From NCBI GenBank assembly GCA_043820655.1, contig JBDRDO010000059.1, forward strand, positions 1 through 55,949: a stretch of DNA of 55,949 nt. The letters run 5' to 3'. A model generated the notes under the pieces. The model worked only from the letters and a program-made list of their open reading frames with translations. It had not been told where the DNA came from and did no database searches. The stretch comes from Candidatus Iainarchaeum sp. (GTDB lineage: Archaea; Iainarchaeota; Iainarchaeia; Iainarchaeales; JAZDEL01). Every line of letters starts with the position of its first letter. Position 1 is the first letter of the stretch. Below are positions 4,401 to 55,868 of this stretch, in pieces. A program made the translations under genes and the position numbers.

Positions 4401-4481
4401 CATTACCGCGGAATTCGCAAGAACTGCAAGCACAATGAGCATGGGCAAAACCGCTAAATATTTTGTTTTTTTGCCGAACAT
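1419..4481 (-). CDS. large secreted Cys-rich repeat protein (about 1020 aa) with a C-terminal polytopic membrane anchor
   Basis: The track ORF is 1419..4556. Start is preferred at MFGKKTKYLAVLPMLIVLAVLANS (signal peptide, ATG 4481-4479), 7 nt after the upstream gene's stop. It has nine CGxGIDxDxDGxxDExC repeats and acidic DxDxDG (thrombospondin-3-like) repeats. Three hydrophobic segments lie at the C-terminus. Confidence 0.85.
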   Translation of the reverse strand: MFGKKTKYLAVLPMLIVLAVLANSAVMTSTSYQMEADVFAGGVPGSSASYDMNAIAIGELVAGNISSGSYSAYVGFLGATAEICNSRDDDQDGEIDEGCPWTPHTGTVTSGISSCTYSCGRNEGCPGHTYATHIGAVCCTEGCTEKIDAVDLAIYSYGSYRAGNEIVVLVDLINRGSRSAANFENTLFAMRGDAESSSLSWIEIESKTIALLASGERTRLTFKTSIQELTLLLNSGGGAYNGIVSIGFMADSKSIHEIDEFNNWGSLSIIIGDTVPEPEICCDDIDNDLDGVIDEGFTEICGNLIDDDMDGKTDEGCSVICTDERGDHVDDGALPGEIECSVSSSPGAPLFKDLYGNGFCLNGCDKTLYMYPDGTLAYEENLYGNMSYKHGKLSAKQLADFKTLVETGGFLSLDQDYYNCARAPTDAGSVTYTYTPGSLSKKVGFYAACPNGGDLRFPPSLTELSNELSQIKLLLKDGRAPESTTTVNVFECETDADCINIKDQCCDCNHSGTNTSINRDYVQCWLDYVNTQFNCSHAFCKAMPSRDESCFSVPACTNGLCSSVADGCPSNPPPKGVCDDGDVRKYTCPDLTEHNWCFCENGEWQCMTSPESNCGETCGNDIDDNRNGLVDEDCEERCDGIDNDLDGIVDEGCGGEICGDGIDNDADGEIDEDCSGLYEICGNGIDDNRNGLIDEGCGEICGDNIDNDLDGEIDELCYPRHEICGNGIDDDQDGLVDEPPCVTEPDDTDDDGLIDDDERGNGSDPYVPDTDGDLLNDGLEFHEIGTNILSLDSDEDNVFDGQEYLYDITDPVDEKSNLLDIIMEPNVPVGKEQSIGINHPTLGLLHGFSAQITSPSGAVEILSTEGAKITFTVREAGNYGVSVRKKKYSEQGYFEGVGFSGSIGGTLGGIAELIFGSSFTEAPFLVLLLFALSAVACILAYRNSKILFPQKILTDKLENREKLKRALLAALFLVAPLLISRFVDLPLAILFAVLEIVSIYSAVYFIRAKARVDDEKKFQV
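2262..2640 (-). repeat. in-frame tandem array of six Cys-bounded acidic repeats (C-G-[ND]-[GD]-I-D-[ND]-[DN]-x-[DN]-G-x-[IV]-D-E-x-C)
   Basis: Read directly: ETCGNDIDDNRNGLVDEDC, CDGIDNDLDGIVDEGC, CGDGIDNDADGEIDEDC, CGNGIDDNRNGLIDEGC, CGDNIDNDLDGEIDELC, CGNGIDDDQDGLVDEPPC. Three further dispersed copies lie near 3530-3660 and 4190-4240. Confidence 0.9.
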
Positions 4482-4488
4482 GGTTTTG

Positions 4489-5559
4489 TCATCTCCCTGT
4501 GTACTCCAAATGATAGTGGACCTCATATCCATAAAAGTAGACCTCATGCGCGTCAAGGTCTGAAATTGTGATTGTGATCATGAAAAGATGCGGCTTGTTG
4601 TTCATTTTATAGGGCAGGCCGGTTGTGTTTGAGGAGTTCATTTCAAATTCGGTACCGCTTGTCTGGTTTGTTGTGTAATTCGCCTCAACAGTTACCGCCT
4701 GCGTGTTCGGGTCAACGCTGACTATATTTGCATCATCAACATAGAATGTTGCGCCGACATTGTAATCGTAAACAGTTATGCGGTCTATTACAGGCGTTGC
4801 GCCGAACTCAACAACATGCATCGGCAGCCCAACCTGGAGTATTCCTCCCGCTGTTCTGGAAACCCCGAACTGGTAAACATTGTCCCCGCGGTAAGTGGTG
4901 AATTCCGTTACGTTGGAGGCTGCATCGACAAAAAGGCTGAATGCGCCCTGCGTGCCCGGGTCGGGCATTACAATTTCCGTTCCGCTCTGCAGGATGAGGT
5001 TTCCTGAAAGATTAATGTCGCCTGCCGTTGGAGTTGAGGCATTGCCAGTTACTATTGTGTTTGAGACGTTCATGTCGTTGAAGTTTGCCCCTCCCAAAAG
5101 CACGACTTGTTTATCTGTTGAGATTGTAAGGTCATTGTCGGCATCGCTGTCGGAGATGCACGAGGTGCAGTTAACATCTTCCGCGGTTTTTGAGGTGTAA
5201 CAGCCGGGCAATGGGGTTAACCTGCTGCGCGGAGCCATCTCCCCGTCGTTTTCTATGTTCACGCCGAGCCAGTACTGGTCAAGGAAGTTGAAGTCTGTTA
5301 GTGCTGTGATTTCACCGAGGGTTGTGCTGAAGTAGCCGTTTGAAACGCCGACTTCATTCGCGCCCTGGTGGATTTCATTCCAGATTGCCGTGCCTCCCGT
5401 GGAAACGTTGTAAAGCGCAAAGTGCATGTTGTAATCTCCGTCGGAGTATGTGCCGGATGAGGAAAGCCTGCCCTGCACATTCATCTGGTTTACGTATGCT
5501 GTTATGGGGAGGGCCAGAAGAACAACTGCGAAAAGCGCCAGTGCAAGTTTCAGTTTCAT
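4489..5559 (-). CDS. secreted paralog 3 of a triplicated ~360-aa family
   Basis: Signal peptide MKLKLALALFAVVLLALPITAYV. Shares with its two neighbours the VQG..L....Y.M.F.IY....G...Y.E.H.GAN...V.NG.F...LG.I(T)AL...F...YW.G(I/V)......EM.PR N-domain, a DVNC[ST]xC hinge, a GD(I/V/M)N(L/V/I)SG motif and a C-terminal (R/E)(L/V).Y(H/Y) ending. Confidence 0.85.
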   Translation of the reverse strand: MKLKLALALFAVVLLALPITAYVNQMNVQGRLSSSGTYSDGDYNMHFALYNVSTGGTAIWNEIHQGANEVGVSNGYFSTTLGEITALTDFNFLDQYWLGVNIENDGEMAPRSRLTPLPGCYTSKTAEDVNCTSCISDSDADNDLTISTDKQVVLLGGANFNDMNVSNTIVTGNASTPTAGDINLSGNLILQSGTEIVMPDPGTQGAFSLFVDAASNVTEFTTYRGDNVYQFGVSRTAGGILQVGLPMHVVEFGATPVIDRITVYDYNVGATFYVDDANIVSVDPNTQAVTVEANYTTNQTSGTEFEMNSSNTTGLPYKMNNKPHLFMITITISDLDAHEVYFYGYEVHYHLEYTGR

Positions 5560-8667: not shown

Positions 8668-10767
8668 ATGGAAAAGAAAATGGTTTTGATTCTAATTGCG
8701 CTGCTTCTTGTGCCGGCAATGGCGCTTGCTGAGCAGTGCGCACTATACAAAGGAAAGGGGGCTTCAACCACGTACGATTTGCTTACGTATGCGGGGCTTG
8801 AGAACGCCCCTGAAAGGATTGATGCATATGCAAGTACGCCGCTTTACACTATTGTCTTTGCGGGGGACACCGTATATGCATACGACAAGTCAACTAACGA
8901 GTGGGACTCGGGAAAGATTTCAGATTATTTCCCGGTAAGCAGGGTTGATGCCGCGATGTACAGCGGCAAGGACGTTGGAACAATAGTTTCCGGGAGATAC
9001 TATTATTACGTGACCGGGCCTTTATGGGAAGGCAAAGGCGCAGAGAGGCTTGGGCACAGCTGGAAAGGGCCCGTTGAACTGAAGAGGGTGGCGATGAACT
9101 ACTGGAAACCCAGGCTGCTGAGCGGCCAGGCGGAGAGTGTTGCGCCATACCCTGTTGCGCCCCAGCTTGCCGCGGCATTCAAGGACCACAGCGGCGTTGA
9201 GCAGCTCTTCATTGCGGATAATGCCCCTGTGAACGGCGTGCGCGGCATAAGGCAGTGGTGGACCGCGGGGCCGAGGGCAAATGTCTGGTTCTATGGGTTC
9301 ATGCCCTACAGGGGAATCGGCGGGGATATAGTGAATATGTCTTCCATTGATGCGATAGAACAGATAGGCAATGTATGGCTGATATTCGGGGAGGGGGACT
9401 GCATGCCCAATGTCAGGAGCGATGAAACCGTTATTGACGTGCTTGAGCATGTCATAGAGGTGCCTTACGAGAAGATACCTGCGGTGGTGAAGAACAGTAA
9501 CGACAAATACTGCGAGCAGGACACGGACTGCAAAAGCATGAACGGCTGCTTTGCAGGGTGCTGGAACGCGCACTTCAAGCCCATCATCAAGAGCGGCAGC
9601 ATATGCCCGACAATGAAGGGACCTGCAAGCTGCGCATGCGTTGAGAACACGTGCATGGCCGGCAAGCCTGGAGACATAACCGACGACCCGGGAACCATAA
9701 CTCCGGGTGTTGAACTGCCCGCATGTGAGGTGCAGTTCACGGACGCGGGATTCCACGGCACGAACAAGACTGTAACTGTAAAGGTGCAGGGAAAGGCTGC
9801 CACAATCAGCAAGGCAATATCAGGATACTACAACTTCGGAACAAGTGACCCGGAAACATGCGATGTATCGGGCAACACGGCATATTGCCCGTGCACGCAG
9901 AACACGAACGACATACGCTACGTGTCCGCGACACTCAAAACAGAAACTGTCAACGGTATAATATATGCGGTTGATGCAGCGGGCAATAAGGTTTGCAGGG
10001 CTGAGAGGGACCCGAAGTACGGCGTTGCAACATACACCTTCCTTGCGGAGGACGGCCTCAAGCGCTGCAACCCCGAGCAGGTTATGGCGGATCGTGTAAC
10101 AGTGAACACTGTGAACGCGAAATTCCATAAGTTAGTTGCGAACTATGTGCTGCAGGGCATTGACCTGACAAACATCGGCACAGAGGCAGCCACGGTCAGG
10201 GACATCAGCGTCCTTTATCCCGAGGTGCTGATAAAGCCCACTGAAGTAAACATGAAATGCAGCGACGGCAGCGAAAAATACTGCAGCTTCAGGCAGCCAG
10301 CGGTAACCGCAACGCCGATGCCGATGGTGGAGCAGTACGCGCTGACGGCAAAGGTCATGGCAGACCCTGCGCAGGCATATGAGATTCCGACGGGAAAGGT
10401 AAGGCCTTTGGAAGTGGCATGGGACCCGAACGCACAGGTTGCGGGAATGCTACACGACATCTCAGTGGTAATCGACTTCATTGACGGCTCATCGCTGGCA
10501 GTGCCGATACCCGATGTTATGGCGGAGGGCTGCACAGACAGCGACGGAGGCAGGGACCTGTTCGAGAAGGGCTATGCAACTGGCAAAAACCCAGCAAGGC
10601 CCACAGAGACAATCTCCGGAGAGGACTACTGCATAACCTCCAGCAATAAGCCGAATACTGCGGTGATGGAATACACATGCAATGGCGAATACCTAGAGAG
10701 CAATGCAATAGCATGCCCCACAAGTAGTACGGGCTGGTGCTCGAACGGCAAATGCACAGAAAAATAA
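8668..10767 (+). CDS. secreted Cys-rich protein (699 aa)
   Basis: GAGGTG lies 7 nt upstream of the ATG. Signal peptide MEKKMVLILIALLLVPAMALA. Many Cys residues. The C-terminal module is CTDSDGGRDLFEKGY...GEDYC...VMEYTCNG...CSNGKC. Confidence 0.8.
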   Translation: MEKKMVLILIALLLVPAMALAEQCALYKGKGASTTYDLLTYAGLENAPERIDAYASTPLYTIVFAGDTVYAYDKSTNEWDSGKISDYFPVSRVDAAMYSGKDVGTIVSGRYYYYVTGPLWEGKGAERLGHSWKGPVELKRVAMNYWKPRLLSGQAESVAPYPVAPQLAAAFKDHSGVEQLFIADNAPVNGVRGIRQWWTAGPRANVWFYGFMPYRGIGGDIVNMSSIDAIEQIGNVWLIFGEGDCMPNVRSDETVIDVLEHVIEVPYEKIPAVVKNSNDKYCEQDTDCKSMNGCFAGCWNAHFKPIIKSGSICPTMKGPASCACVENTCMAGKPGDITDDPGTITPGVELPACEVQFTDAGFHGTNKTVTVKVQGKAATISKAISGYYNFGTSDPETCDVSGNTAYCPCTQNTNDIRYVSATLKTETVNGIIYAVDAAGNKVCRAERDPKYGVATYTFLAEDGLKRCNPEQVMADRVTVNTVNAKFHKLVANYVLQGIDLTNIGTEAATVRDISVLYPEVLIKPTEVNMKCSDGSEKYCSFRQPAVTATPMPMVEQYALTAKVMADPAQAYEIPTGKVRPLEVAWDPNAQVAGMLHDISVVIDFIDGSSLAVPIPDVMAEGCTDSDGGRDLFEKGYATGKNPARPTETISGEDYCITSSNKPNTAVMEYTCNGEYLESNAIACPTSSTGWCSNGKCTEK

Positions 10768-34829: not shown

Positions 34830-37800
34830 ATGGAAAGCAAAAAAAATGAAATTGCATCTATACGCAAAAGGGACGGCAGAATCGTGCCTTTTGACGGGGA
34901 AAAGATAGCCCATGCTATTTTCAAGTCCGCGCAGGCAGTGGGGGGAAGCGATAAGGCAACTGCGGAGGCGCTTGCGGGAAAGGTTTTTGAGGCACTTGGA
35001 AAGAGGTTCAAGGCGGATGAAATACCGAGTGTTGAGCAGATACAGGACCTTGTTGAAAAGGTGCTTATTGAGGAGGGGCATGCAAAAACAGCGAAGGCCT
35101 ACATCATCTACAGGCAGCAGCACAAGAAAATCAGGGAAATAGAGAGCACGCTTATAGATGTTCAGAAAACAATTGATGAGTATCTGCAGCAGAGCGACTG
35201 GAGGGTTAATGAAAACAGCAATGAGGCGTATTCATTCAGCGGCCTGCTTCTGCACACCGCGGGAAAGGTCATTGCAAATTACGCGCTGACTGAAATTTAT
35301 CCCCCCGATATTGCGGATGCGCACAAGAAGGGGTATATGCATGTGCATGACCTGAGCCACGGGTTTATCGGCTACTGCGCGGGCTGGAGTTTGGAAACAC
35401 TGCTTGAGCGCGGGTTTGGGGGGGTCGCAAATAAGGTGGATGCAAAGCCGGCAAAGCACATGGATGTTGTTGTGCACCAGATGGTGAATTATATCGGGTG
35501 TTTGCAGATGGAGTTTGCTGGTGCGCAGGCGTTCAGCAGCGTGGACACTTTGCTTGCGCCGTTTGTAAAGGCTGACAATCTTAGCTATAAGCAGGTTAAG
35601 CAGGATATGCAGAAACTTATATTCTCATTGAATATACCCTCAAGGTGGGGCTGCCTCAGCGAGGACACAGAAATACTGGCTGAGGGAGGCTGGAGGAAGG
35701 GCACGGAACTTGAGCGCGGAGATGTAATTGCCACGTTCAACACAAAAACAGAGGAGATAGAATATCTGCCCGTTATAAAGATGACAAAGGACCATTACAA
35801 GGGCAGGATGAAAAGGCTGCGCAACAGGATTACCGACCAGCTTGTGACTCCGAATCATCGCATTCTCAGGAGAATACACAATTACAAAGAAGGCGTTTCA
35901 AAATCAAAATATGTATTTGAGGAGGCAGCGGAACTGAAAACAGGCATCCCGCTGATACCGCTTGGCGGTTTTTTTCGGGGCACTGAAAACGGCGCTGTTC
36001 TTAACCACGACACTGTGAATCTGCTTTCATGGATTGTTTCTGAGGGCACGCTGTGCGAGGGTGAAAGAATAGGCATACATCAATCCGCGGAAATGAATCC
36101 GCAGAACTGTGAAGATATACGGGGCACACTTACAAGGCTTGAAATCCCGTTTGACGAGGCGATGAAGGTTTCCGGTTACACAGGAAAAAGGAACTGTTTA
36201 AGGTTCAGAATTAACCGGCCTGAATCAAGGAACATCTGCACTGAGTTCTTTCCGAGATATGAGAAAAAAATTCCTGAGCAAATGAGAGATGCCCCTGCAG
36301 AAAGTATAAGGCTTTTCTTGGAAACGTATATGAAAGCAGATGGCTGGGCGCCTGAAAACAAAATTTACACAAAGAAAGGGGATGATGCGGATGTTTTTCA
36401 GGAACTGGCGGTAAAGGCGGGCTGGGGCAGCACCTGCTACAAAAACAGGAACGGTATTTTTGTTGTTAGGGTAATAAAGCACGATTATACACAAATAACA
36501 GCAATAGAGGATGTTGAGTATGACGGACTGGTTTGGTGCCCTACAACGGAAAACGGCACGGTTATAGCCAGGAGAAAGGGAAAGGTTTTCATAAGCGGGA
36601 ACTCACAGTATCCTTTTTCGAATCTAACTTTCGACTGGGTTGTGCCTGATGACATGAAAGATAAGAAGGCGCTTGTTGGCGGGGTTAAGCAGGAATTCAC
36701 TTACGGGGATTGCCAGAAGGAAATGGACACGGTAAACAAGGCGTTCCTTGAGATAATGAATGGGGGAGATGCGAACGGCAGGGTTTTCACATTCCCGATC
36801 CCGACATATAATATCACAAAGGACTTTGACTGGGACAGCGAGAATGCTGATTTGCTTTTCGAGGTTACGGCAAAATATGGATTGCCCTACTTCCAGAATT
36901 ATGTCGGAAGTAATTTAGATCCGGGAAGCATACGGGCAATGTGCTGCAGGCTGAACATGGACACAAGCCAGCTTATGAACAGGCCGGGAAGCATGTGGGG
37001 GCCGGGCGACAGCACGGGAAGTATTGGTGTTGTCACAATAAACCTGAACAGGCTTGCATATGAGGCAAAGACAAAGGACGAGTTCATGGACAAGGTTGCG
37101 CACTACATGAACCTTGCACACCAGTCGCTTGAGATAAAGCGCGTAATAATAAACAAGAATTTGAAGAACGGGCTTATGCCCTACACAAAGGCATATCTCG
37201 GAACGTTCAGGAACCACTTTTCAACAATAGGGCTTGTCGGAATGAACGAGGCGTGCAAGAACATGCTTGGGGAGAGCATCAAAAGTGAGGCAGGGAAGCA
37301 GTTTGCAATAGAGACACTGCAGTTCATGCGTGAAAGGTGCCTGCAGTTCCAAAAGAACAGCGGAAACCTATATAATCTTGAGGCAACGCCAGCGGAATCC
37401 GCATCATTCAGGCTTGCGAAGCTTGACAAGGAGATGTACCCGGATATAATAACTGCAGGGACCGATGTGCCGTACCTCACAAACTCAACGCACTTGGGGG
37501 TTGGGGAGACGGATGATGCTGTTGAGGCAATAGAGCACCAGAACGACATTCAGCCGCTTTACACAGGGGGAACAATGTTCCACACATTTTTAGGGGAGAA
37601 TGTTTCAAGCGGCGCTGCGTGTAAAAAACTTGTGCGAAGGATTGCGGAAAACACAAGGCTGCCATACTACAGCATAACCCCTACATTCAGTGTCTGTCCC
37701 GATCACGGGTATATTGCGGGGAAGCATTTTACCTGCCCCGCATGCAGTGACAACGCGGAAGGGGTGAAGGAAAATAATGCAGGCAGTGTGGAAACTGCGG

Positions 37801-37901
37801 AAATTGGCGGGCGGGCGGAGGAAGGCACGGCAGATGCCGCGGAAACCGGAGCCCCTGCAAACGGAGATGGCAATTTAGCCGAAGCAACTGAAACGAGGTG
37901 A
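34830..37901 (+). CDS. nrdD: anaerobic (class III) ribonucleoside-triphosphate reductase large chain, intein-containing, lacking the glycyl-radical tail
   Basis: ATP-cone N-terminus (IRKRDGRIVPFDGEKIAHAI), NrdD core, and a C-terminal ITPTFSVCPDHGY..FTCPAC. Ends in a 50-aa acidic low-complexity tail and a double stop (TGA TAA). Confidence 0.9.
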   Translation: MESKKNEIASIRKRDGRIVPFDGEKIAHAIFKSAQAVGGSDKATAEALAGKVFEALGKRFKADEIPSVEQIQDLVEKVLIEEGHAKTAKAYIIYRQQHKKIREIESTLIDVQKTIDEYLQQSDWRVNENSNEAYSFSGLLLHTAGKVIANYALTEIYPPDIADAHKKGYMHVHDLSHGFIGYCAGWSLETLLERGFGGVANKVDAKPAKHMDVVVHQMVNYIGCLQMEFAGAQAFSSVDTLLAPFVKADNLSYKQVKQDMQKLIFSLNIPSRWGCLSEDTEILAEGGWRKGTELERGDVIATFNTKTEEIEYLPVIKMTKDHYKGRMKRLRNRITDQLVTPNHRILRRIHNYKEGVSKSKYVFEEAAELKTGIPLIPLGGFFRGTENGAVLNHDTVNLLSWIVSEGTLCEGERIGIHQSAEMNPQNCEDIRGTLTRLEIPFDEAMKVSGYTGKRNCLRFRINRPESRNICTEFFPRYEKKIPEQMRDAPAESIRLFLETYMKADGWAPENKIYTKKGDDADVFQELAVKAGWGSTCYKNRNGIFVVRVIKHDYTQITAIEDVEYDGLVWCPTTENGTVIARRKGKVFISGNSQYPFSNLTFDWVVPDDMKDKKALVGGVKQEFTYGDCQKEMDTVNKAFLEIMNGGDANGRVFTFPIPTYNITKDFDWDSENADLLFEVTAKYGLPYFQNYVGSNLDPGSIRAMCCRLNMDTSQLMNRPGSMWGPGDSTGSIGVVTINLNRLAYEAKTKDEFMDKVAHYMNLAHQSLEIKRVIINKNLKNGLMPYTKAYLGTFRNHFSTIGLVGMNEACKNMLGESIKSEAGKQFAIETLQFMRERCLQFQKNSGNLYNLEATPAESASFRLAKLDKEMYPDIITAGTDVPYLTNSTHLGVGETDDAVEAIEHQNDIQPLYTGGTMFHTFLGENVSSGAACKKLVRRIAENTRLPYYSITPTFSVCPDHGYIAGKHFTCPACSDNAEGVKENNAGSVETAEIGGRAEEGTADAAETGAPANGDGNLAEATETR
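35652..36602 (+). mobile_element. intein (317 aa) with a LAGLIDADG homing-endonuclease domain inside nrdD
   Basis: Block A CLSEDTEIL, block B VTPNHRIL, LAGLIDADG-like LLSWIVSEGTL and FLETYMKADGW, block F/G VWCPTTENGTVIA...VFISGN followed by Ser +1. Removing it leaves a 706-aa NrdD. Confidence 0.8.
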
Positions 37902-40401: not shown

Positions 40402-41048
40402 GCCGCACAGCGGGCATTGAAAAAATACTGCGCGTAATGCGCGCGGAAGCGGGGAATAGTGCGGCAGTGGTTTCACTGCGCACCCCTTTTCAGGTGCTTG
40501 TCTCAACTGTGCTTAGCGCAAGGACAAGGGATGAAAATACTGCAAGGGCTTCCGCACAATTATTTTCAAAATTTGGCACGCCCTCGGCAATTGCGGGGGC
40601 AAGGCTGAGTGAAATTGGGCGGCTTATAAAGCCAAGCGGATTTTACAAAACAAAGGCGAGGAATATAAAAAAACTCGCACGCGAACTGCTGGAGCGGTTT
40701 GATGGGGAAGTTCCGCAGGGCATTGAGGCCCTCATAACGCTTCCCGGAGTGGGAAGGAAAACCGCAAACTGCGTTTTGGTTTACGCCTTTGGGAAGCCGG
40801 CAATCCCCGTTGATGTGCATGTGCACAGGATTTCAAACAGGCTCGGCCTTGTGGAAACGCGGGCGCCGGAGGAAACCGAGATTGCACTTATGAAAGCCGT
40901 GCCAAAGAGGCACTGGATTGAAATAAATAATCTGATGGTTAAATTCGGGCAGAGGGTTTGCAGGCCTGTTGCGCCCCATTGTGCGCAGTGCGGGTTGATG
41001 AAGGATTGCAACTATGGCAAATTAAATGTGCCTTCAGCCCATGCCTGA
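40398..41048 (+). CDS. nth: endonuclease III (DNA glycosylase/AP lyase)
   Basis: HhH-GPD (LPGVGRKTANCVL, catalytic Lys; VDVHV.R) and the Fe-S loop CRPVAPHCAQCGLMKDC. Confidence 0.9.
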   Translation: MSRTAGIEKILRVMRAEAGNSAAVVSLRTPFQVLVSTVLSARTRDENTARASAQLFSKFGTPSAIAGARLSEIGRLIKPSGFYKTKARNIKKLARELLERFDGEVPQGIEALITLPGVGRKTANCVLVYAFGKPAIPVDVHVHRISNRLGLVETRAPEETEIALMKAVPKRHWIEINNLMVKFGQRVCRPVAPHCAQCGLMKDCNYGKLNVPSAHA

Positions 41049-41699
41049 AACAAGTTCACGCAGTGCCTTTTCGGGATGTTTAGATTTTACGACTGCGGAG
41101 GCGACAAACACGCCAGCAGCGCCGAGTTCAATGCTTTTTGAAACATCCTCCCGCGCGTTTATTCCTGCGCCCGCAATTACGGGGATTTTTGCGATTTTGG
41201 AAACAGCGTCAATCGCGGAGGTTATTATTTCGGGCTTTGCCGTTGAAACTGAAAGTGTGCCGCCTATTAATTCAGGGGGCTCAATTGCGATAAGGTCGGG
41301 CTTGAATTTTGCAAGCACTGCCGCGCGTTTGGGGGTTTCGGCGCATAACATTATTTTAAGGCCTGCTTCACGTGCGCGGTTAACACACCGTTCAACAAAT
41401 TCATTGTCCTGCTTGTCCTCCGCGTGGTTTGTTATTGTGCCTGCGGCACCGGCATTCTTTATTGCCTCGGGCATGTTTTTCCCGGTGTTTGAGCCGAAAT
41501 TAACAGGGTCAATATGCTGGGCGAAAATTTCAATGCCGACTGCGGATGCCACAGCATGTAAATCAACCGCCTGAACAACAGGGATTATTTTATGCCCTGT
41601 TTCATGCGAAACCTTTTCCGCGATTTTTGCGAGTTCAATAGCACGCTTTCCCGTTGCCTGTTCATAAGTCTTGAAATTCAGGAAGAACACGGGTTTCAT
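41034..41699 (-). CDS. tpiA: triosephosphate isomerase (archaeal short type)
   Basis: FLNFKTY, TITNHAE (NHSE-like), IAIEPPELIG, GAGI. Confidence 0.9.
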   Translation of the reverse strand: MKPVFFLNFKTYEQATGKRAIELAKIAEKVSHETGHKIIPVVQAVDLHAVASAVGIEIFAQHIDPVNFGSNTGKNMPEAIKNAGAAGTITNHAEDKQDNEFVERCVNRAREAGLKIMLCAETPKRAAVLAKFKPDLIAIEPPELIGGTLSVSTAKPEIITSAIDAVSKIAKIPVIAGAGINAREDVSKSIELGAAGVFVASAVVKSKHPEKALRELVSGMG

Positions 41700-41794: not shown

Positions 41795-41819
41795 AAAATA
41801 TAAAGCAATATAAAGCAAT
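41795..41819 (+). promoter_or_regulatory. TATA-like element containing a tandem 10-bp duplication upstream of the RelA/SpoT-like gene
   Basis: aaaatataaagcaatataaagcaat. ataaagcaat occurs twice (41800-41819), 27-50 nt before the ATG at 41846. Confidence 0.35.
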
Positions 41820-41845: not shown

Positions 41846-43762
41846 ATGTTTCCGACAAGGCCGCTTTTAGATGAGACTATTTCACATGTCAGGCAGCACT
41901 ACCCCGCCCCTGATATCCAGGTAATAAAGGACGCATATGCATTTGCAAATGAAATTTATGTCGGAGGGAAAACCCCCGCGGGGAGGCAGTTCATAATGCA
42001 CCCGCTTGGCACGGCAAAAATTGTTGCAGAAATGGGGGGGGATGAAAAGGCGGTTGCCGCGGCAATGCTCCATAATGCATGGGCCACTGAAGTGCATGAC
42101 GCCGGTGGAATGACATTAACAACCAAAAAAAATGTGGAGGAACGGTTCGGCAGCGAGATTACGGCATTGATTGACAATGTCCTGAAGGAGAGTGCGCTGG
42201 AGGAGAAATACGCAAAAAAGCTTTCAAACACACTGGTGGCAAAACTAATCATGGCTTCAATGAAGGACAGGCGCGGATTTCTTATAAAACTTGCCGCAAG
42301 GCTGGACATGCTGAGGGAGGCGGGAGATTGGGGAGAAGAAGAAAGGGCGCAAATAGCGGACAAATCCCTTCAGGTTTTTGCGCCGATTTCAAACAGGCTT
42401 GGCATTTACCAGATAAAGGATGAGTTTGAGGACCTTGGCTTTAAGTACAGTCAGCCTGAAGAGTACAATAAACTTGCGGGCATGATGGAGGAAGTGGTTT
42501 CAAGAAGCGAAAGGCACCTTCTGGAGGCGGAGGATATGCTTCAAAAAAAGCTTTCAACCGCGGGAATATCCGCGGAAATAACCCATAGGGAAAAAGCAGT
42601 GTACAGCGTTTACATGAAAATGAAGCGCAAGAACTGCAAATTCAGCGAAATATACGATCTGCTGGGGATAAGGATTATAACAAAAAGCGTAAAGGACTGC
42701 TACGTTGTTTTGGGGCTGGTGCATGCGCAATGGGAGCATATTAAGGAGGAGTTTAACGATTACATAGCAAAACCCAAACAGAACAACTACCAGTCAATAC
42801 AGACAACTATAATCGGCCCTGTGGAAACACCTATAGAAATCCAGATACGGACAGGAGAGATGCACAGGCTGGCGGAACTTGGCTTTGCCGCGGACTGGAA
42901 ATACGGAAGCATTGTCGGGGAGGACAGGTATGAGAAAAGGCTGTACTGGCTTAAGCAGCTTTTTGACTGGGAAAGGCAGGCGAAAAACCCAAGTTACGGC
43001 GGGTTTGAAATAAATTACAAGGGGGACATAATTGTGGCGCTTACCCCCGAGGGGCTGCCTGTTGAATTGCCTTCCGGCGCAACAGTCCTTGATTTTGCAT
43101 ATGCAATACACAGCGGGCTTGGCAGCAGGTGCAGGGGCGCCAGGGTAAATGAGGAAATGGTTTCACTTAAACATGCGCTGAAGAACCTTGACATTGTTGA
43201 AATAATTGCCTCTAAAAACCATCAGGCAAACAGTGGCTGGCTGGGCATAGCCAAAACCGCAAAGGCAAGGAAAAAAATAAGGGCGGCACTTAAAATCAAG
43301 CCCGGAACTGCGGGAGAAACAAGTATCGGCGGGAAAGTCACAATAGACGATGGGAATTACAAGGTAAGGCTTGCAAGATGCTGCAACCCCGTGCCAGGGG
43401 ATGAGATTGCGGGGTATACGTCCACGAACAGGAAAATATCTGTGCACAGGAAAACATGCAAAGAAATTGAAAAGGCAAACGGCAGGCTATGCCATGTTGA
43501 GATTGAATGGGGCAGCGGCACGGAAACCGATTACTCTGCAAATTTGTGCGTAGAAGCGAAGGAGGGTTTTGCCGTTGTGTCGGAACTGCTCTCGGTTTTT
43601 TCAAAACAGAAGGTGCAGGTAATTTCCGGCGGGCTTCAGAGCGCAAACAATAATATTGCGAAGTATCTTTTTAACATAAAAATAAATAACATGGATGAGC
43701 TGAATAAAATAGTTTCAATGGTTGGGAAAATAAGAGGCATCAGGAAAGTCTGGAGGGAATAA
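41846..43762 (+). CDS. long RelA/SpoT homolog (HD-like, synthetase, TGS, Cys-rich helical and ACT-like domains)
   Basis: HPLGTAKIVAEMGGD..AAAMLHN (HD-like; the D of the HD dyad is N). Synthetase: YSVYMKM.RK...F.EIYDLLGIRII....DCY..LG.VH..W....EEF.DYIA.PK.N.YQS..T...GP....IEIQIRT.EMH..AE.G.AA.WKY. TGS: DIIVALTPEG..VELP.GAT.LDFAY.IHS..G. ARCCNPVPGDEI.GY. Confidence 0.85.
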   Translation: MFPTRPLLDETISHVRQHYPAPDIQVIKDAYAFANEIYVGGKTPAGRQFIMHPLGTAKIVAEMGGDEKAVAAAMLHNAWATEVHDAGGMTLTTKKNVEERFGSEITALIDNVLKESALEEKYAKKLSNTLVAKLIMASMKDRRGFLIKLAARLDMLREAGDWGEEERAQIADKSLQVFAPISNRLGIYQIKDEFEDLGFKYSQPEEYNKLAGMMEEVVSRSERHLLEAEDMLQKKLSTAGISAEITHREKAVYSVYMKMKRKNCKFSEIYDLLGIRIITKSVKDCYVVLGLVHAQWEHIKEEFNDYIAKPKQNNYQSIQTTIIGPVETPIEIQIRTGEMHRLAELGFAADWKYGSIVGEDRYEKRLYWLKQLFDWERQAKNPSYGGFEINYKGDIIVALTPEGLPVELPSGATVLDFAYAIHSGLGSRCRGARVNEEMVSLKHALKNLDIVEIIASKNHQANSGWLGIAKTAKARKKIRAALKIKPGTAGETSIGGKVTIDDGNYKVRLARCCNPVPGDEIAGYTSTNRKISVHRKTCKEIEKANGRLCHVEIEWGSGTETDYSANLCVEAKEGFAVVSELLSVFSKQKVQVISGGLQSANNNIAKYLFNIKINNMDELNKIVSMVGKIRGIRKVWRE

Positions 43763-44896
43763 CTATTCCGCCCTGAGCGCATCAACAGGGTCCATTTTCG
43801 AGGCGGCATATGCGGGATAAAATCCCGCGAAAACGCCTATAAACAGGGCAAAGAAAAAAGCCTGCAGAATCAGCGCAGGGCTTACCAGTGTTGTGAGCCC
43901 TGCAACATCCTGTATAAGGCCTGCACCTATAATTCCAAAAATAATTCCCAGTATTCCGCCGAAAATTCCTATAAGCGCGGATTCATAAAGTATCATTTTC
44001 ATTATGTCGTTATTTGTCCAGCCCACCGCTTTCAGCGAGCCTATTTCCTGAAAGCGCTCAACAACACTCATCAGCATTGTGTTGAGGATGCCTACGCCGG
44101 CAACAATTGCCGCGATTGCCGCAACCGCCCCGACAAGGAGGCGGAGGCTGCCAAGCACATCCCCGATCTGACTTGAGAAATCACTCGCCGAGCGCGCCAT
44201 CAGGTCATCCCCGTATTTGAAATTAATTATTTTTGCTATTTTCTGGTCGTCTTCGGGGGTGCGGAGTGAGAGGCTGTATTGTGTCACTTTTCCGTTTGCA
44301 AAGCCGACCAAATCGCGGAGGTCATCAATCGGCATTATCATTACGGTGTTAAGGATTGACGAGCCTGTTTCATACGTCCCCATTATTTTGAATGCCTTGC
44401 CGTTTATCTTAATCCTGTTCCCGACAAATTTGTCATTGTCCTCGGCATACTGCTTGGAGATAAGGACTGCCTTTGTGTCGCCTGCCTTGAGCTCCCTGCC
44501 GCTTACAATCTCTCCCGAAAAGCCCGCGGCGCCTTTCATTTTTTGCCCTTCAAGACCGATGCCAATAAGCCTTGTTGGTACGCCGGTCAGGCTGCCTGAT
44601 TTCCCGTCAACTGAATTTGCAAGCGCAACTATTGTCGGCACCGCCGATTCAACGCCGGGAATTGCCTCAAGCTTTGATCCATAGGATATGTCAATTTCGG
44701 AAAAAATGCCGATCTGCCCCTCCTCAAATATTGTGACGCCCTGCATGTTTGAGAATGCGTTTTCAACTTCCCCCACCATGCCGTCCACAACCGATACCAT
44801 GGTTATTATTGCGGCAACGCCTATGACTATTCCGAGAAGGGAGAGCACCGCGCGGCTCTTATTTCTGAAGATATTCAAAACAGCGACCTTTATCAT
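43763..44896 (-). CDS. ABC transporter permease, FtsX/MacB type
   Basis: N-terminal TM, large extracytoplasmic domain, and a C-terminal FtsX 3-TM bundle (EIGSLKAVGWTNNDI). Confidence 0.8.
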   Translation of the reverse strand: MIKVAVLNIFRNKSRAVLSLLGIVIGVAAIITMVSVVDGMVGEVENAFSNMQGVTIFEEGQIGIFSEIDISYGSKLEAIPGVESAVPTIVALANSVDGKSGSLTGVPTRLIGIGLEGQKMKGAAGFSGEIVSGRELKAGDTKAVLISKQYAEDNDKFVGNRIKINGKAFKIMGTYETGSSILNTVMIMPIDDLRDLVGFANGKVTQYSLSLRTPEDDQKIAKIINFKYGDDLMARSASDFSSQIGDVLGSLRLLVGAVAAIAAIVAGVGILNTMLMSVVERFQEIGSLKAVGWTNNDIMKMILYESALIGIFGGILGIIFGIIGAGLIQDVAGLTTLVSPALILQAFFFALFIGVFAGFYPAYAASKMDPVDALRAE

Positions 44897-44911
44897 GGAA
44901 TCACGGCAGGA

Positions 44912-45604
44912 TTATTTTTTCACGCGGCTCTTAGACCTGATTGAATCTATTTTTCCGTCCTTTAAATGGTATTGCCTGGTTGCATAGCGCAGCAAATCCT
45001 CATCATGCGTTACAATCACAAAAGTTTTGTTTTCCTCCTTATTGAGCCTGCGCATCTCGCGGACAATCTTGTCGCCTGTTGCGGAATCAAGATTGCCTGT
45101 CGGCTCGTCCGCAAATATTATTTCAGGGTTGTTTATAAGCGAGCGCGCTATTGATACGCGCTGGCGCTCACCCCCTGAAAGTTCTGTCGGCTTATGGAAC
45201 ATGCGCTCGCCAAGACCCATCTGGCGCAGCAGGGCCTTTGCCTTTTCCGCAACCTCCTCGGGCTGGCGGTTTGTCGGTTCTGTAGGGATGATTACGTTTT
45301 CAAGCGCGTTAAGTGTGGGGATTAAATTAAATGCCTGAAAAACAAAGCCTATTTTCTCGCGCCTTATCATTGCAAGGTGCCAGTCCTCAAGCACTGATAT
45401 GTTCCTGCCGCCAATATGGACCGAGCCGGACGTGGGATGGTCCAGTGCGCCGAGAATGTGCATAAGCGTGCTTTTCCCCGAACCGCTGGGTCCGACAATA
45501 ATCACGAAGTCCCCCTTATTTATTTTCAAAGAAACCCCCCTGAGTGCGTGCACAGTGGTTGTGCCCATTTTGTACTGCTTGGTTATGTTTTTGGCTTCTA
45601 TCAT
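44912..45604 (-). CDS. ABC transporter ATP-binding protein (MacB/LolD family)
   Basis: Walker A GPSGSGKST, signature LSGGERQR, Walker B IIFADEPTGNLD. Confidence 0.9.
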   Translation of the reverse strand: MIEAKNITKQYKMGTTTVHALRGVSLKINKGDFVIIVGPSGSGKSTLMHILGALDHPTSGSVHIGGRNISVLEDWHLAMIRREKIGFVFQAFNLIPTLNALENVIIPTEPTNRQPEEVAEKAKALLRQMGLGERMFHKPTELSGGERQRVSIARSLINNPEIIFADEPTGNLDSATGDKIVREMRRLNKEENKTFVIVTHDEDLLRYATRQYHLKDGKIDSIRSKSRVKK

Positions 45605-45605
45605 T

Positions 45606-46742
45606 TTATCTCCCCCCTCTTATCGCATGCACAGGGTCAAGGCGCGAGGCGCGTATTGCGGGATAAACTCCTGCAATCAACCCTATAAGGAATGCAAAGC
45701 CGAAAGCCTGAAAAACCAATGGCATTGTTATTGCATAACTGAGGCCGAATGCCTGCTCAAGGAAAACATCCGCAAGGAAACCCAGGACAAGGCCGAAAAC
45801 CCCGCCAAGCATGCCGAGGAACATTGATTCATAAAGGATCATGCGCATTATGTCCAGATTTGTCCAGCCCACTGCCTTCAGTGCACCTATTTCCTTTGTG
45901 CGCTCCATTATGCTCATCAGGATTGTGTTTATTATGCCAATACCCCCCACTATTGCGGAAATTCCCGCAATGAAGAACACAAGCAGCCTGAAGTTGCCAA
46001 GTACATCCCCCATCTGGTCTGAGAAGTCTGAAGACGTGTACGCCTCAAGGTCATCCCTGAACCTGAAGTTTATTTCCTGTGTAACGCGCTTATCCATGGA
46101 AGGGTCGGTAAGGCTCATGTAGAAATCGTTCACCTTATCGTCAGGAAATCCCGAAAGGTCGCGTGCGTCCTCTATGCTCATCACAACCATGCTGCCAAGC
46201 AAATCCGAGCCTGCACGGTAAATTCCCTTTACCTTGAATTTTTTCCCGTCAATCTTAAATGTGCTGCCGGGGAATTTGCTATATTCGTCCGCAATCTGAT
46301 TGCCAAGGACAACGTATCCGGTGTCGCCCGGGCGCAGGAATGCTCCCTGCTCTATTTCCCCGACCCATGGATTGCCGCCCATTAAGATGTATTTTCTGAC
46401 ATCAAGGCCGTATATTGCGGTGCTCATCATGTTTGAGACTGAGCCGCCCTCCAGCGAGGATGGGACAATCCATATCTCAGGCATTACATATTTGACACCC
46501 TGCACTGATTTCAGTTTTGATTCGTATGAGGCGTCAACCTTTGAGAGGGTCTGGTCAAGGGCGTCCTTTTCCATCACATAAACGCCCTGAAACTGACCTA
46601 TGACATCATTTATTTCACCATAAATTCCGTCAACAATTGAGACAAGGACAATTATTGAGGCAACGCCTATGATTATGCCAAGCAATGCAAGGCCTGTGCG
46701 GCTCTTCCTCCTGAAAAGGTTTAGAAAAGATAACTTAATCAT
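45606..46742 (-). CDS. ABC transporter permease, FtsX/MacB type (second copy)
   Basis: Same architecture as 43763..44896 (EIGALKAVGWTNLDI). 1-nt spacing to the ATPase gene. Confidence 0.8.
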   Translation of the reverse strand: MIKLSFLNLFRRKSRTGLALLGIIIGVASIIVLVSIVDGIYGEINDVIGQFQGVYVMEKDALDQTLSKVDASYESKLKSVQGVKYVMPEIWIVPSSLEGGSVSNMMSTAIYGLDVRKYILMGGNPWVGEIEQGAFLRPGDTGYVVLGNQIADEYSKFPGSTFKIDGKKFKVKGIYRAGSDLLGSMVVMSIEDARDLSGFPDDKVNDFYMSLTDPSMDKRVTQEINFRFRDDLEAYTSSDFSDQMGDVLGNFRLLVFFIAGISAIVGGIGIINTILMSIMERTKEIGALKAVGWTNLDIMRMILYESMFLGMLGGVFGLVLGFLADVFLEQAFGLSYAITMPLVFQAFGFAFLIGLIAGVYPAIRASRLDPVHAIRGGR

Positions 46743-46763
46743 AAATATTCATTGGGCTGGGGG

Positions 46764-47993
46764 CTATGCCTTACGCATTGCGAGCTGCCTGAAGACCATC
46801 TTTATTATGAAGTAGAGGAGCACGAGAATAATTACTATCAGGATAAGCAGGCCTATCGGCGATTCTGCAGGGCGGGGGTGTATGTAAAGATCTATACTGG
46901 TCTGGATTTTCTGTTCCTCGTTGAGCTCATCACGATAGGTTATGAGTATAGGGACATTGCGCTCGCCAAGTTCTGCGGTCGGGCTGACAACAAGCGTGAA
47001 AAGGCCCGAGCCTGAATCATCATCATCAATGTTCCCGACATAGCTTTCAAGTATGCCCTCTATCCCGGCATCAGGAGATAGCGCAACGCGTGTTGCCTTT
47101 GCCGTTTCCTTGCCTATATTGTCAAGCTGCACCGACAGGGTGAGCGTGTCCGCCTGCATTATGCGCTTGTCATCCCCGCGGTTCTCTATTGAGAAGTCAA
47201 TTCCCGAAATTATAAGGTCGGGCCTGCCAAACAAATCAAAGGAAAAGGACTGTTTTGCGGAGGAACTGCAGTCAAGGCAGTTTGCGTCTATTTCAAAGAC
47301 ATATGTCTTGGGCGCGCCCTTGTCGGAAGCCTTAAGGGAGTAACTAACCGGCTTTGATTCATACGGCCCGATGTCGCCGAGATCTACGATTGTGTCGGAA
47401 AGTGAAATAAAGGGATCTAGGGTGCTGTTTGTTTGGGGCCTCAGGTTAACACTTACGTTCCTTGCCTCGCCGGAGCAGTTGTTTGTCACTTTCGCCATTA
47501 TTCTGAACATCTCATTTAAGTGGGGGGCATATGTGTCAAGTTTAACATCCCCGACATCAAGGCTGTAGCATTCCGTAACCAGGAGATCTGCGTCGTAGCT
47601 GTGTTCCACGGCATCATTGCCGTTTTTATATTTCAGGTTCACTGAGAACTTGTATGTTCCGGGATACGCATTCTCCCTTACCTTGAAGCGGAATACCGCG
47701 TTTTTCAGGGAACCGGGATGTATTGTGCCAAGACCCTCCTCAACATGAATTGACTCAAAATAATTCTCATTAAGGGAAAGTGTGGCAATAACCTCCTTTG
47801 CAGGGACGTTGCCGGATGTGCTCTCAATCTGCACATTGAAATTTACCGTATCTCCCGCATAAACAGTTGCAGGATTCTGTGAAAATGTATTAGCCTTAAG
47901 GAGCGTATTGTACGACTGTGCACCGGCTGTGCCTGCAATAAGCAGAAGGAGCATTGCAATTGAAAACAAAAATCTAAACTTATTGCCTTGCAT
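46764..47993 (-). CDS. secreted repeat-domain (CARDB/COG1361-like) protein with a C-terminal TM anchor
   Basis: Signal peptide LFSIAMLLLLIAGTAGAQS. About three ~110-aa beta-sandwich-like repeats (..V.N.G...A.NV.V.L..). C-terminal TM plus a basic tail. First gene of the ABC operon. Confidence 0.7.
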   Translation of the reverse strand: MQGNKFRFLFSIAMLLLLIAGTAGAQSYNTLLKANTFSQNPATVYAGDTVNFNVQIESTSGNVPAKEVIATLSLNENYFESIHVEEGLGTIHPGSLKNAVFRFKVRENAYPGTYKFSVNLKYKNGNDAVEHSYDADLLVTECYSLDVGDVKLDTYAPHLNEMFRIMAKVTNNCSGEARNVSVNLRPQTNSTLDPFISLSDTIVDLGDIGPYESKPVSYSLKASDKGAPKTYVFEIDANCLDCSSSAKQSFSFDLFGRPDLIISGIDFSIENRGDDKRIMQADTLTLSVQLDNIGKETAKATRVALSPDAGIEGILESYVGNIDDDDSGSGLFTLVVSPTAELGERNVPILITYRDELNEEQKIQTSIDLYIHPRPAESPIGLLILIVIILVLLYFIIKMVFRQLAMRKA

Positions 47994-48089: not shown

Positions 48090-48830
48090 ATGAAGCGTGT
48101 TGCCACAGGCGTTAAGGGGCTTGATGATTTAATAGAGGGCGGCCTTCCCGAGGGCAGGTCTGTTCTGCTTTCAGGGGCGTGCGGAACAGGAAAAACGATA
48201 CTTTCAATGCAGTACATATACCACGGCGCGAAGCAGTATTCCGAACCCGGGGTTTATGTGACACTTGATGAAAGGCCTGATTTGATACGGCAGGATGTGC
48301 TCAGGTTCGGCTGGGATTTAAGGAAGCTTGAGGATGAGAACCTAATGCAGATTGTTGACGGGAGCATTGCAAAACTTGGGCTGCCTAGTGACGAGGAATT
48401 TTCAATGCCTGCAACAGGATTTGACCTTGATAAATTGCTGCTTGAGATAATGCGTGTTTCGAAGAGAATAGGGGCAAAGAGGGTCGTTATTGACAGCATT
48501 CCTGCGCTGGGATTTAATTTTGAGAACGACAATGATGTGCGGAAGGCGATACTGAAGCTTAGTTATATGCTGATGCGCACGGGGGTTACTTCAATACTCA
48601 CTTCGGAGGTGCAGGAGGGCGAAAACAAGTTCGGCAAGTATGGAGTAGAGGAGTATGTTGTTGACGGAGTCATAGTTCTGCACTATGTGGGAATTGGCGC
48701 GCAGAGCAACAGGACTTTACACATAAGGAAGATGCGGGCAACAAACCATTCCGAGGATCTGCACCCGATAAAAATAACAAACAAGGGAATGGTTGTGCAC
48801 AAAATAGAGGAAGATTATAAGGACACTTAA
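48090..48830 (+). CDS. KaiC/RecA-superfamily single-domain ATPase
   Basis: V.TGV.GLDDLIEGGLPEGRSVLLSGACGTGKT (Walker A), Walker B VVIDSI, and a KaiC-like C-terminus (R.L.I.KMR...H). Confidence 0.8.
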   Translation: MKRVATGVKGLDDLIEGGLPEGRSVLLSGACGTGKTILSMQYIYHGAKQYSEPGVYVTLDERPDLIRQDVLRFGWDLRKLEDENLMQIVDGSIAKLGLPSDEEFSMPATGFDLDKLLLEIMRVSKRIGAKRVVIDSIPALGFNFENDNDVRKAILKLSYMLMRTGVTSILTSEVQEGENKFGKYGVEEYVVDGVIVLHYVGIGAQSNRTLHIRKMRATNHSEDLHPIKITNKGMVVHKIEEDYKDT

Positions 48831-55127: not shown

Positions 55128-55868
55128 TTAAGCAATAGTTAATTTCAATTTTCTCATTTTCTTAGCACTGTCAAACCCAACAAACCCATAAAACCTTGAG
55201 AGATTGTCTTTTCCCCTGACCTTTAATCGTATCCCTTGGACAACCGCCCCGCATTTCCGCTTATTCTTTCTGGAAAGTAAAAAAGGCACAGTGGATTTAA
55301 TGCCAAAATAATTGAGAAGCCCGCGCCGCATCTGATTCAAGAAAAAGGTGCCACTATCTGTCAAATCCACGGATTTGTGCAATTCAACCGCTATGGATTT
55401 GCCAGCCACATCGATGCCTGCTTCACAATCAAAATATCTCCTCACAAAGGAAGCGAAGAGCTTTTTATCATTTAAAATCCAGGTGGGAATCGAATATTTT
55501 TTCATGACTTTATTGCCGCACGGAACGCCAATCAAAAACAGGCTCTTTGCCAAAGGCCTGTAATTTACGCCGTAATTTTTAGTGTTGTACTGATTAGTAG
55601 TGCAGTCCCGTATTTTTCCTTTCAATCCGAATAATTCGGCGATAGTTTTTTCAAACCTGTTTAACTCACAACGGGAATTTGAACAATAATCAAAACGCCA
55701 TTTTGGATCGCCCTGAAGATGGCCGTCTGCCATTAAATCCGCAACTAATCCTGCGAGTTTTTGCGAGGGAACCAAAGGCAGCCAATGGTTTATTCTATTA
55801 TCAAATTTCAACTTATTATTTCGCGGATATGTTTTGAGAAGGCTTGTAAAATCAACTAGTGCGTCCAT
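55128..55868 (-). CDS. free-standing double-motif LAGLIDADG homing endonuclease
   Basis: KLAGLVADLMADGHLQG (motif 1) and FASFVRRYFDCEAGI (motif 2). 246 aa. Confidence 0.85.
   Translation of the reverse strand: MDALVDFTSLLKTYPRNNKLKFDNRINHWLPLVPSQKLAGLVADLMADGHLQGDPKWRFDYCSNSRCELNRFEKTIAELFGLKGKIRDCTTNQYNTKNYGVNYRPLAKSLFLIGVPCGNKVMKKYSIPTWILNDKKLFASFVRRYFDCEAGIDVAGKSIAVELHKSVDLTDSGTFFLNQMRRGLLNYFGIKSTVPFLLSRKNKRKCGAVVQGIRLKVRGKDNLSRFYGFVGFDSAKKMRKLKLTIA

Follow-up and report, generated by a model that had tools for sequence, protein, structure and literature searches.

We propose that a gene on a 55,949-nucleotide contig of Candidatus Iainarchaeum sp. (GenBank assembly GCA_043820655.1, contig JBDRDO010000059.1; the whole contig is the window referred to below) encodes a long RelA/SpoT homologue (RSH) that is most reasonably read as a synthetase-only enzyme with a pseudo-hydrolase scaffold. 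In this reading, which we consider probable, the enzyme is a trimmed counterpart of RelA, which serves bacteria as a starvation alarm, and should make (p)ppGpp without degrading it; the gene belongs to a paralogue, here termed A, that is native to the Iainarchaeota, a DPANN lineage, is found across the phylum and has been inherited vertically since an ancient transfer from bacteria. Many relatives carry a second, shorter RSH match, termed B, and the genome studied here is one that has A alone.

Domain architecture

Paralogue A and its parts are laid out in the window as follows.

41,846 to 43,762, + strand: long RSH paralogue A, 638 amino acids, with pseudo-HD, synthetase (SYNTH), TGS, zinc-finger (ZFD) and ACT domains and no helical (AH) domain
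41,933 to 42,406, + strand: pseudo-hydrolase HD_4 domain, residues 30-187
42,584 to 42,904, + strand: (p)ppGpp synthetase domain, residues 247-353
43,034 to 43,207, + strand: TGS domain, residues 397-454
43,208 to 43,360, + strand: AH-domain remnant consisting of two short helices plus a linker that is disordered
43,361 to 43,480, + strand: zinc-finger/ribosome-intersubunit domain (ZFD/RIS), ligands C512, C513, H534 and C538
43,523 to 43,756, + strand: ACT/RRM domain, residues 560-637

The frame is uninterrupted, and Pfam profiles match HD_4 at residues 30-187 (E 5e-27), RelA_SpoT at 247-353 (E 7.5e-39), TGS at 397-454 (E 2.4e-19) and ACT_4 at 560-637 (E 4.4e-08, above the cut-off), with a weak and partial match to RelA_AH_RIS at residues 456-534 (E 0.016). 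The protein also scores 503 bits against the NCBIfam model TIGR00691 (spoT_relA), for which the cut-off is 499. An earlier sequence-only reading had described a 638-residue open reading frame (ORF) with HD-like, synthetase, TGS, CC..P.PGD and ACT-like parts, and the Pfam matches to all four domain families, the TIGR00691 score and the cysteine motif agree with that description. The order of an N-terminal HD_4 fold followed by RelA_SpoT places the protein in the long RSH class (Rel/RelA/SpoT). When searched against the PDB with phmmer, residues 5-480 align to mycobacterial Rel and residues 507-637 to the zinc-finger and ACT region of Rel, and ribosome-bound E. coli RelA is aligned by the same parts. 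An AlphaFold2 model built on 67 sequences (mean predicted local distance difference test score, pLDDT, 82.9) has as its top structural match RelA on the 70S ribosome (5iqr, E 4.5e-39), followed among the best matches by B. subtilis Rel and A. baumannii SpoT, and when its N-terminal half is fitted to S. aureus Rel, the template modelling (TM) score is 0.93 and the root mean square deviation 2.2 Å. In the regulatory region four of the five elements are found, TGS, ZFD (CCHC) and ACT being present and AH amounting to two short helices. The bacterial long-RSH architecture claimed for the gene therefore stands as regards domain order, but not as regards the helical domain, the deletion of which had been missed. 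Between this genome (G000) and a 92%-complete genome of the same genus (G001), protein identity is 61% in the pseudo-HD, 69% in the synthetase, 67% in TGS, 52% in ZFD and 35% in ACT, so that every domain of paralogue A is under constraint.

Active-site residues

The HD domain keeps H52 and H76, has N77 in place of D78 (residues 75-77 read LHN for LHD) and has lost the EDT motif, the site of which is occupied by an 8-residue insertion (AWATEVHDAGG); the alignment thus bears out both the LHN dyad and the absent EDT noted in the sequence-only reading. Further on, the ADRLHNMRT motif reads AARLDMLRE; D144 is replaced by A151 and N148 by M155. The hydrolase set of HDxxED, D144 and N148, which supplies the Mn2+ ligands and the catalytic pair, is consequently broken in this protein. 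The pseudo-HD is still 61% identical to its same-genus orthologue and so remains constrained. Having lost its metal and catalytic residues, it probably persists, like that of E. coli RelA, in the role of a structural or regulatory scaffold.

The synthetase domain presents the opposite picture, with R248, K250, D271, R276, Y315, E331, Q333 and R335 all present. To place these residues among relatives, 29 long-type loci (A, the type of the gene studied here) and 18 short-type loci (B) were compared in an alignment with bacterial Rel, which gave the following residue counts (n=30 for A, n=18 for B).

GRxK arginine and lysine: A 30/30 each; B arginine 0/18, lysine 13/18
Synthetase D264: A 30/30; B 18/18
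Synthetase R269: A 30/30; B 0/18
Synthetase Y308: A 30/30; B 15/18
Synthetase E323 and Q325: A 30/30 each; B 0 (lysine in 15) and 0
TGS histidine (E. coli RelA H432): A 30/30; B 1/18
ZFD ligands C, C, H, C: A 30/30; B domain absent
HD H53 and H77: A 22/30 each; B 18/18 each
HD D78, D144 and N148: A 6, 7 and 5 of 30; B 18/18 each

R327 of the synthetase is likewise kept in 29/30 A sequences. Where RXKD would be expected, the protein carries an acidic EFND; across the 30 A sequences this site has E at position 1 in 14, D at position 3 in 20 and D at position 4 in all 30, EFDD being the form in most A proteins and a basic K/RxKD that in B and bacterial Rel. This charge reversal from RXKD to EXDD is known to tell monofunctional RelA from bifunctional Rel (PMC2666561). 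As the hydrolase residues are lost and the counted synthetase residues are intact, the prediction of a RelA-like, synthetase-only enzyme that had been made for this gene is upheld at the level of individual residues.

Regulatory region and loss of the helical domain

H422 in the TGS domain aligns with E. coli RelA H432, the histidine (H420 in B. subtilis) that stacks on the CCA end of uncharged tRNA (PMC7797070), and the RCCNPVPGD...VHRKTC motif at residues 511-538 lines up with the ZFD in both mycobacterial Rel and E. coli RelA. Between these two landmarks little is left of the helical domain. The stretch from the end of TGS to the zinc finger covers about 116 residues in mycobacterial Rel (545-661) against 27 here (480-507), and about 94 in E. 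coli RelA (498-592) against 9 here (484-493), a shortfall of about 90-115 amino acids relative to the bacterial enzymes; the model has only two short helices there, and pLDDT falls below 50 at residues 485-496. All A orthologues are 590-650 amino acids long and PF19296 is absent from their precomputed Pfam lists, which makes the AH deletion a trait of the whole A clade.

Because TGS, the zinc finger, ACT and the CCA-reading histidine are kept, we propose that the enzyme is probably activated by deacylated tRNA and/or the ribosome. Because AH has been deleted throughout the clade, its binding geometry would have to depart from that of the bacterial RelA-70S complex.

Distribution, synteny and native character

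The window is the whole of one contig of a 1.01-Mb genome in 103 contigs (84% complete, 0.9% contamination), and the genome closest to it is a Candidatus Iainarchaeum metagenome-assembled genome (MAG) of the Iainarchaeota, formerly Diapherotrites; a single contig scan, run with one protein, returned only two loci. The best named protein match is from "Candidatus Diapherotrites archaeon" at 58% identity. With the 638-residue protein as query and a threshold of E <= 1e-30, a homologue is found in 137 of 201 sampled genomes of the phylum (68%), each of them carrying the label of the same order; the query also has a match in 38 of 41 relatives. Most of the matches are full-length orthologues of 600-660 amino acids at 30-58% identity. 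The RSH gene has a GC content of 0.472 and a third-position GC content (GC3) of 0.531, against 0.488 GC for the genome, and its codon-usage distance ranks 10th of 38 ORFs.

The neighbourhood is archaeal in character and is made up as follows.

41,034 to 41,699, - strand: archaeal-type triosephosphate isomerase (TIM), divergent and upstream, adjoining paralogue A in 15/29 loci
41,797 to 41,819, + strand: tandem 10-bp duplication, 2.3 copies of ATAAAGCAAT, a putative archaeal promoter
43,763 to 47,993, - strand: MacB-type FtsX-ABC-FtsX cassette and CARDB surface-protein gene, convergent, between A and its usual downstream partner
48,090 to 48,830, + strand: KaiC-like single-domain ATPase (PF06745, E 1.8e-74)

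An archaeal setting between TIM and an ABC operon had been described from the letters alone, and it is confirmed by the marker genes of the window, which include the short 221-residue TIM, RPA, class I LysRS and SRP54/FtsY. An independent 114-kb MAG contig matches this neighbourhood in gene content, order and orientation, with GDH, HhH-GPD glycosylase, TIM (-), RSH (+), FtsX (-), ABC (-), FtsX (-) and CARDB (-), its flanking proteins being 67-80% identical to those of the window and its RSH 57%. Across the 29 orthologous A loci, which come from many families, 17 have the KaiC-like ATPase (52-79% identical in most families) downstream of A and in the same orientation, 11 of these with only some 50-90 nt between the two genes; in 7 loci of several families, including the present one, the RSH gene is instead directly adjoined by a convergent MacB-type ABC cassette. 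A and the KaiC-like gene may therefore form a conserved pair that is split here by the ABC cassette. As the arrangement of TIM, RSH and KaiC-like genes is shared across many families, it is in keeping with long vertical inheritance of A, unlike a recent import.

The contig is not chimeric at the RSH locus and the gene is compositionally native, so that the checks of integrity, GC and codon usage that the sequence-only reading had called for all favour an ordinary resident gene. Its picture of a rare and isolated archaeal gene with a traceable bacterial donor does not survive the count of 137 genomes, the conserved synteny and the native composition. Indeed, the presence of long RSH genes in Diapherotrites is already published and the present gene is not a first: Li et al. 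2021 (mSystems, PMC8407392) report RelA/SpoT in 69.0% of Diapherotrites with a predicted bacterial origin, and that figure, for the same lineage and gene family, agrees with the 68% found here. What had been thought unusual about the gene had thus largely been reported for this lineage beforehand, while the other doubt raised at the outset, that of a chimeric contig, did not hold. In its main text the treatment by Li et al. is one sentence from automatic annotation, and that text does not touch on the broken hydrolase site, the deletion of AH, the division into A and B, the synteny or the loss of B. Our literature search found no other paper on these Diapherotrites genes.

The tandem duplication upstream of A, which had been claimed beforehand, is real and doubles a TATA-like ATATAAAG element into two copies at 27-49 nt before the ATG, and no other exact tandem duplication with an 8-15-base unit occurs in the 56-kb window. 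In the same-genus MAG a single TTTATATTAAAG element stands 11-22 nt before the ATG of the RSH gene. We regard the duplicated element as a putative archaeal promoter.

The shorter paralogue B

Two or more RSH matches, counted by hand, are present in 69 of the 137 genomes. By Pfam, B has HD, pseudo-synthetase, TGS and ACT domains and lacks ZFD and AH, and the residue counts above suggest that it is the reciprocal paralogue of A, its hydrolase site being live and its synthetase site dead. The sequence-only reading had missed both this paralogue and its absence from the present genome. B directly follows argS, in the same orientation, in 15/18 B loci (including those of G002, G022 and G028). Paralogue B would supply the degradation of the alarmone in roughly half of the phylum.

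Neither B nor any other RSH is found in G000 or G001 when they are searched with PF04607, PF13328 and B-protein queries, which return only A; the same searches with PF04607, PF13328 and a B query find no small alarmone hydrolase and no second RSH in G000. In both genomes (contig C28 of G000 and contig C9 of G001) a small unrelated ORF comes next after argS without a break in the sequence, and in G000 other genes come after it. Because the sequence downstream of argS is contiguous and without B, the absence of B at its canonical site is real for the genus and is no assembly gap. Since B is lacking, turnover of the alarmone in this genus would have to use another enzyme, dilution or tight control of A. 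The search for ppGpp hydrolases and Nudix partners suggested earlier has a mixed outcome, finding no RSH hydrolase and no Ppx/GppA in G000 and a single Nudix gene, which would be one candidate for the other enzyme.

The ORFs behind argS (G000:C28:1149-1652, 168 amino acids; L058:305-1081 of G001, 259 amino acids) overlap the argS stop, share an N-terminus, GDVGMA.FPKPLR, and resemble neither RSH proteins nor any Pfam family. The 168-residue ORF was considered as a remnant of B and was ruled out, having no similarity to A or B and belonging to no Pfam family. Two further RSH forms were seen among the relatives. In a family (f3) without a full-length match, locus L053 (G003:C1:523000-526300) encodes a very divergent RSH of 460 amino acids, a third and truncated form with a degenerate HD, an intact-looking synthetase (EIQIRT), TGS and neither zinc finger nor ACT, and it sits on a very long branch. 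Locus L054 (G025:C4:147400-149900) encodes, in addition to A, a single-domain RelA_SpoT protein of about 190 amino acids with EFDD and EVQIRT, which looks like a small alarmone synthetase.

Phylogeny

Two IQ-TREE runs were made, each a quick search under LG+C20 PMSF with SH-aLRT as the only support (values in brackets); they are to be read as unrooted trees in which the bacterial sample is limited and biased towards the best matches and many rows deviate in composition. In the first, one clan unites the 29 A sequences and the truncated L053 (99) and another the B sequences (100), while a branch with a support of 99 sets the sampled bacteria apart. In the second, from which L053 was left out and to which 13 proteobacterial Rel/SpoT and 4 RelA sequences were added, the clan of the 29 A sequences, now on their own, has a support of 98, that of B 100 and that of the bacteria 99, and the five proteobacterial RelA sequences form a clan (99) nested inside the bacteria, away from archaeal A. 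Within this limited bacterial sample, the second tree rules out an origin of archaeal A from the proteobacterial RelA/SpoT duplication. Given this placement of proteobacterial RelA among the bacteria, convergence is the simplest account of how A came to look like RelA. The three clans of A, B and bacteria join at one node in both trees, an arrangement that would fit A and B being sisters that arose through one transfer and a duplication, without proving it. The best bacterial matches share only about 40% identity and are taxonomically mixed, being Coriobacteriia and Bacillota in the case of A and Clostridia and Rokubacteria/Methylomirabilia in that of B. The phylogeny that was to point to a donor sets archaeal A apart from all sampled bacteria, and no donor can be named for either paralogue.

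Weighing the alternatives

Several observations count against a native A acting as a RelA-like synthetase. G000 is only 84% complete, and a synthetase without any RSH hydrolase departs from the bacterial rule (PMC3153485). In B. subtilis Rel a stable tRNA complex needs both TGS and the helical domain, TGS alone being insufficient (PMC7797070), so that the loss of AH disfavours a simple RelA-like tRNA sensor. Within the synthetase, the protein has H319Q in the conserved SxHT motif, a change found in only 2/30 A sequences, and AADW instead of AAHW, and these changes could lower or alter activity. The last two, of which H319Q falls in the acceptor-nucleotide motif, also favour an RSH-derived pseudoenzyme or sensor, or a maker of another nucleotide (such as pGpp or (p)ppApp), in a genus that would no longer make (p)ppGpp in vivo and would hence tolerate the loss of its hydrolase partner. 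Such a reading would further be in keeping with the absence from G000 of B, of any other HD_4 protein and of Ppx/GppA, and with the tie between EXDD-type motifs and pGpp formation (PMC2666561). We nevertheless think it unlikely, given that all counted synthetase residues are intact, that no catalytic part is better conserved than the synthetase when G000 is compared with G001, and that the same-genus orthologue retains the histidine of SxHT and is also without B.

The enzyme might instead still be bifunctional, its modified HD domain (H52, H76, N77 and D85 in the inserted loop) acting as a weak (p)ppGpp hydrolase that makes a separate one needless. The clade of the present protein, G001 and G004 does keep both HP and the H that begins the HD motif, which most other A proteins have lost, and the constraint on its pseudo-HD and the absence of B from the genus would both fit. 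Two of the four Mn ligands are altered, however (D78N and D144A), a loop modelled with low confidence stands where the ED pair should be, the equivalents of N148 and R44/K45 are lost, and G004 shares this HD state and yet retains B; the want of hydrolysis in monofunctional RelA is itself ascribed to the same cause, an absent HDXXED (PMC2666561). We accordingly hold residual hydrolysis to be distinctly improbable. Least credible of all, to the point of being hardly worth entertaining, is that the gene reached this locus from a bacterium by recent horizontal acquisition, or that the contig is chimeric or contaminated. The nearest non-archaeal matches are indeed bacterial Rel proteins, about 40% identical along the N-terminal three quarters, and the superfamily census of Atkinson et al. 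2011, in line with the premise of the sequence-only reading, records archaea as being without long RSHs (PMC3153485). Against this stand the same gene order on both flanks in an independent Ca. Iainarchaeum MAG, the TIM and KaiC-like neighbours kept across many families, a gene present in 68% of the phylum, the supported clan of archaeal A apart from all sampled bacteria, native GC, GC3 and codon usage, and 0.9% contamination. A chimeric or contaminated contig is ruled out by the independent gene order, the composition and the contamination estimate, and a recent transfer with an identifiable donor by the phylum-wide distribution and synteny.

We therefore return to the native, synthetase-only paralogue A, from which a broader and more speculative scenario may be built, one that we advance tentatively and would not expect to hold in full. 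In it, the Iainarchaeota would have a true alarmone system of their own, which, after a single ancient bacterial import, would have split, independently of the Proteobacteria, into a synthetase-only A sensor and a hydrolase-only, argS-adjacent B; B would have been lost in the present genus, and A would rely on non-RSH turnover, such as by a Nudix enzyme, or would have been repurposed. Were this so, A here would be nature's simplest example of a long RSH synthetase that acts on archaeal ribosomes with neither an RSH hydrolase to accompany it nor the tRNA-gripping AH domain. As a long RSH that stays conserved, constrained and synthetase-intact across an archaeal phylum, paralogue A is a concrete protein with which to ask whether any archaeon makes the alarmone, and also how such an enzyme could read an archaeal ribosome when the helical domain is missing. 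Furthermore, the reciprocal specialisation of A and B resembles an independent replay of the RelA/SpoT split, of which the present genome offers the natural case of A alone.

Other features of the window

Scans of the window for tRNA genes and Rfam families gave no matches, and a sigma-70 and terminator scan, which is not applicable to archaea, was at background level only. An ORF at 34,830 to 37,901 (+) of 1023 amino acids encodes an anaerobic ribonucleotide reductase, NrdD, which Pfam matches in two stretches, the best at 591-976 corresponding to profile positions 154-531; this suggests that the ORF carries a large insertion. At the end of the contig, an ORF of 246 amino acids at 55,128 to 55,868 (-) has a GC of 0.40 and a GC3 of 0.43, against about 0.49 and 0.54 on the rest of the contig, together with the second-largest codon-usage distance, and may be a foreign gene. 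Two large ORFs, at 1,419 to 4,556 (-, 1045 amino acids) and 8,668 to 10,767 (+, 699 amino acids), match no Pfam family at E <= 1e-5.

Comparison with known systems

The closest likeness is to E. coli RelA, a monofunctional long RSH of class [hS] (5iqr, 5kpv) and the best structural match of the model. Both have a pseudo-hydrolase without HDxxED joined to an intact synthetase, the CCA-stacking TGS histidine, a CCHC zinc finger and an ACT/RRM domain, and the EXDD motif of RelA is approached by an acidic one of varying letters in A (here EFND, most often EFDD). The present protein differs in being without about 90-115 residues of AH, in falling outside proteobacterial RelA in the tree, and in having an archaeal host with archaeal ribosomes and no SpoT-like partner in its genome. 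By sequence, the best matches are instead the bifunctional Rel enzymes (B. subtilis 6yxa, S. aureus 7oiw, RelSeq 1vj7 and mycobacterial 8fr8), at 34-42% identity over the N-terminal domains and TGS, with which A shares the domain order and, as the TM score of 0.93 indicates, the fold of its N-terminal half; they have a live hydrolase (HD, ED, D144 and N148), RXKD and a full AH domain, none of which is found in A. Finally, the B of the relatives finds its analogue in A. baumannii SpoT[Hs] (7qpr; PMC9974481), which combines a live hydrolase with an inactive pseudo-synthetase that serves as a regulatory domain, although B is without AH and ZFD, adjoins argS on its downstream side and is absent from the genome studied here.

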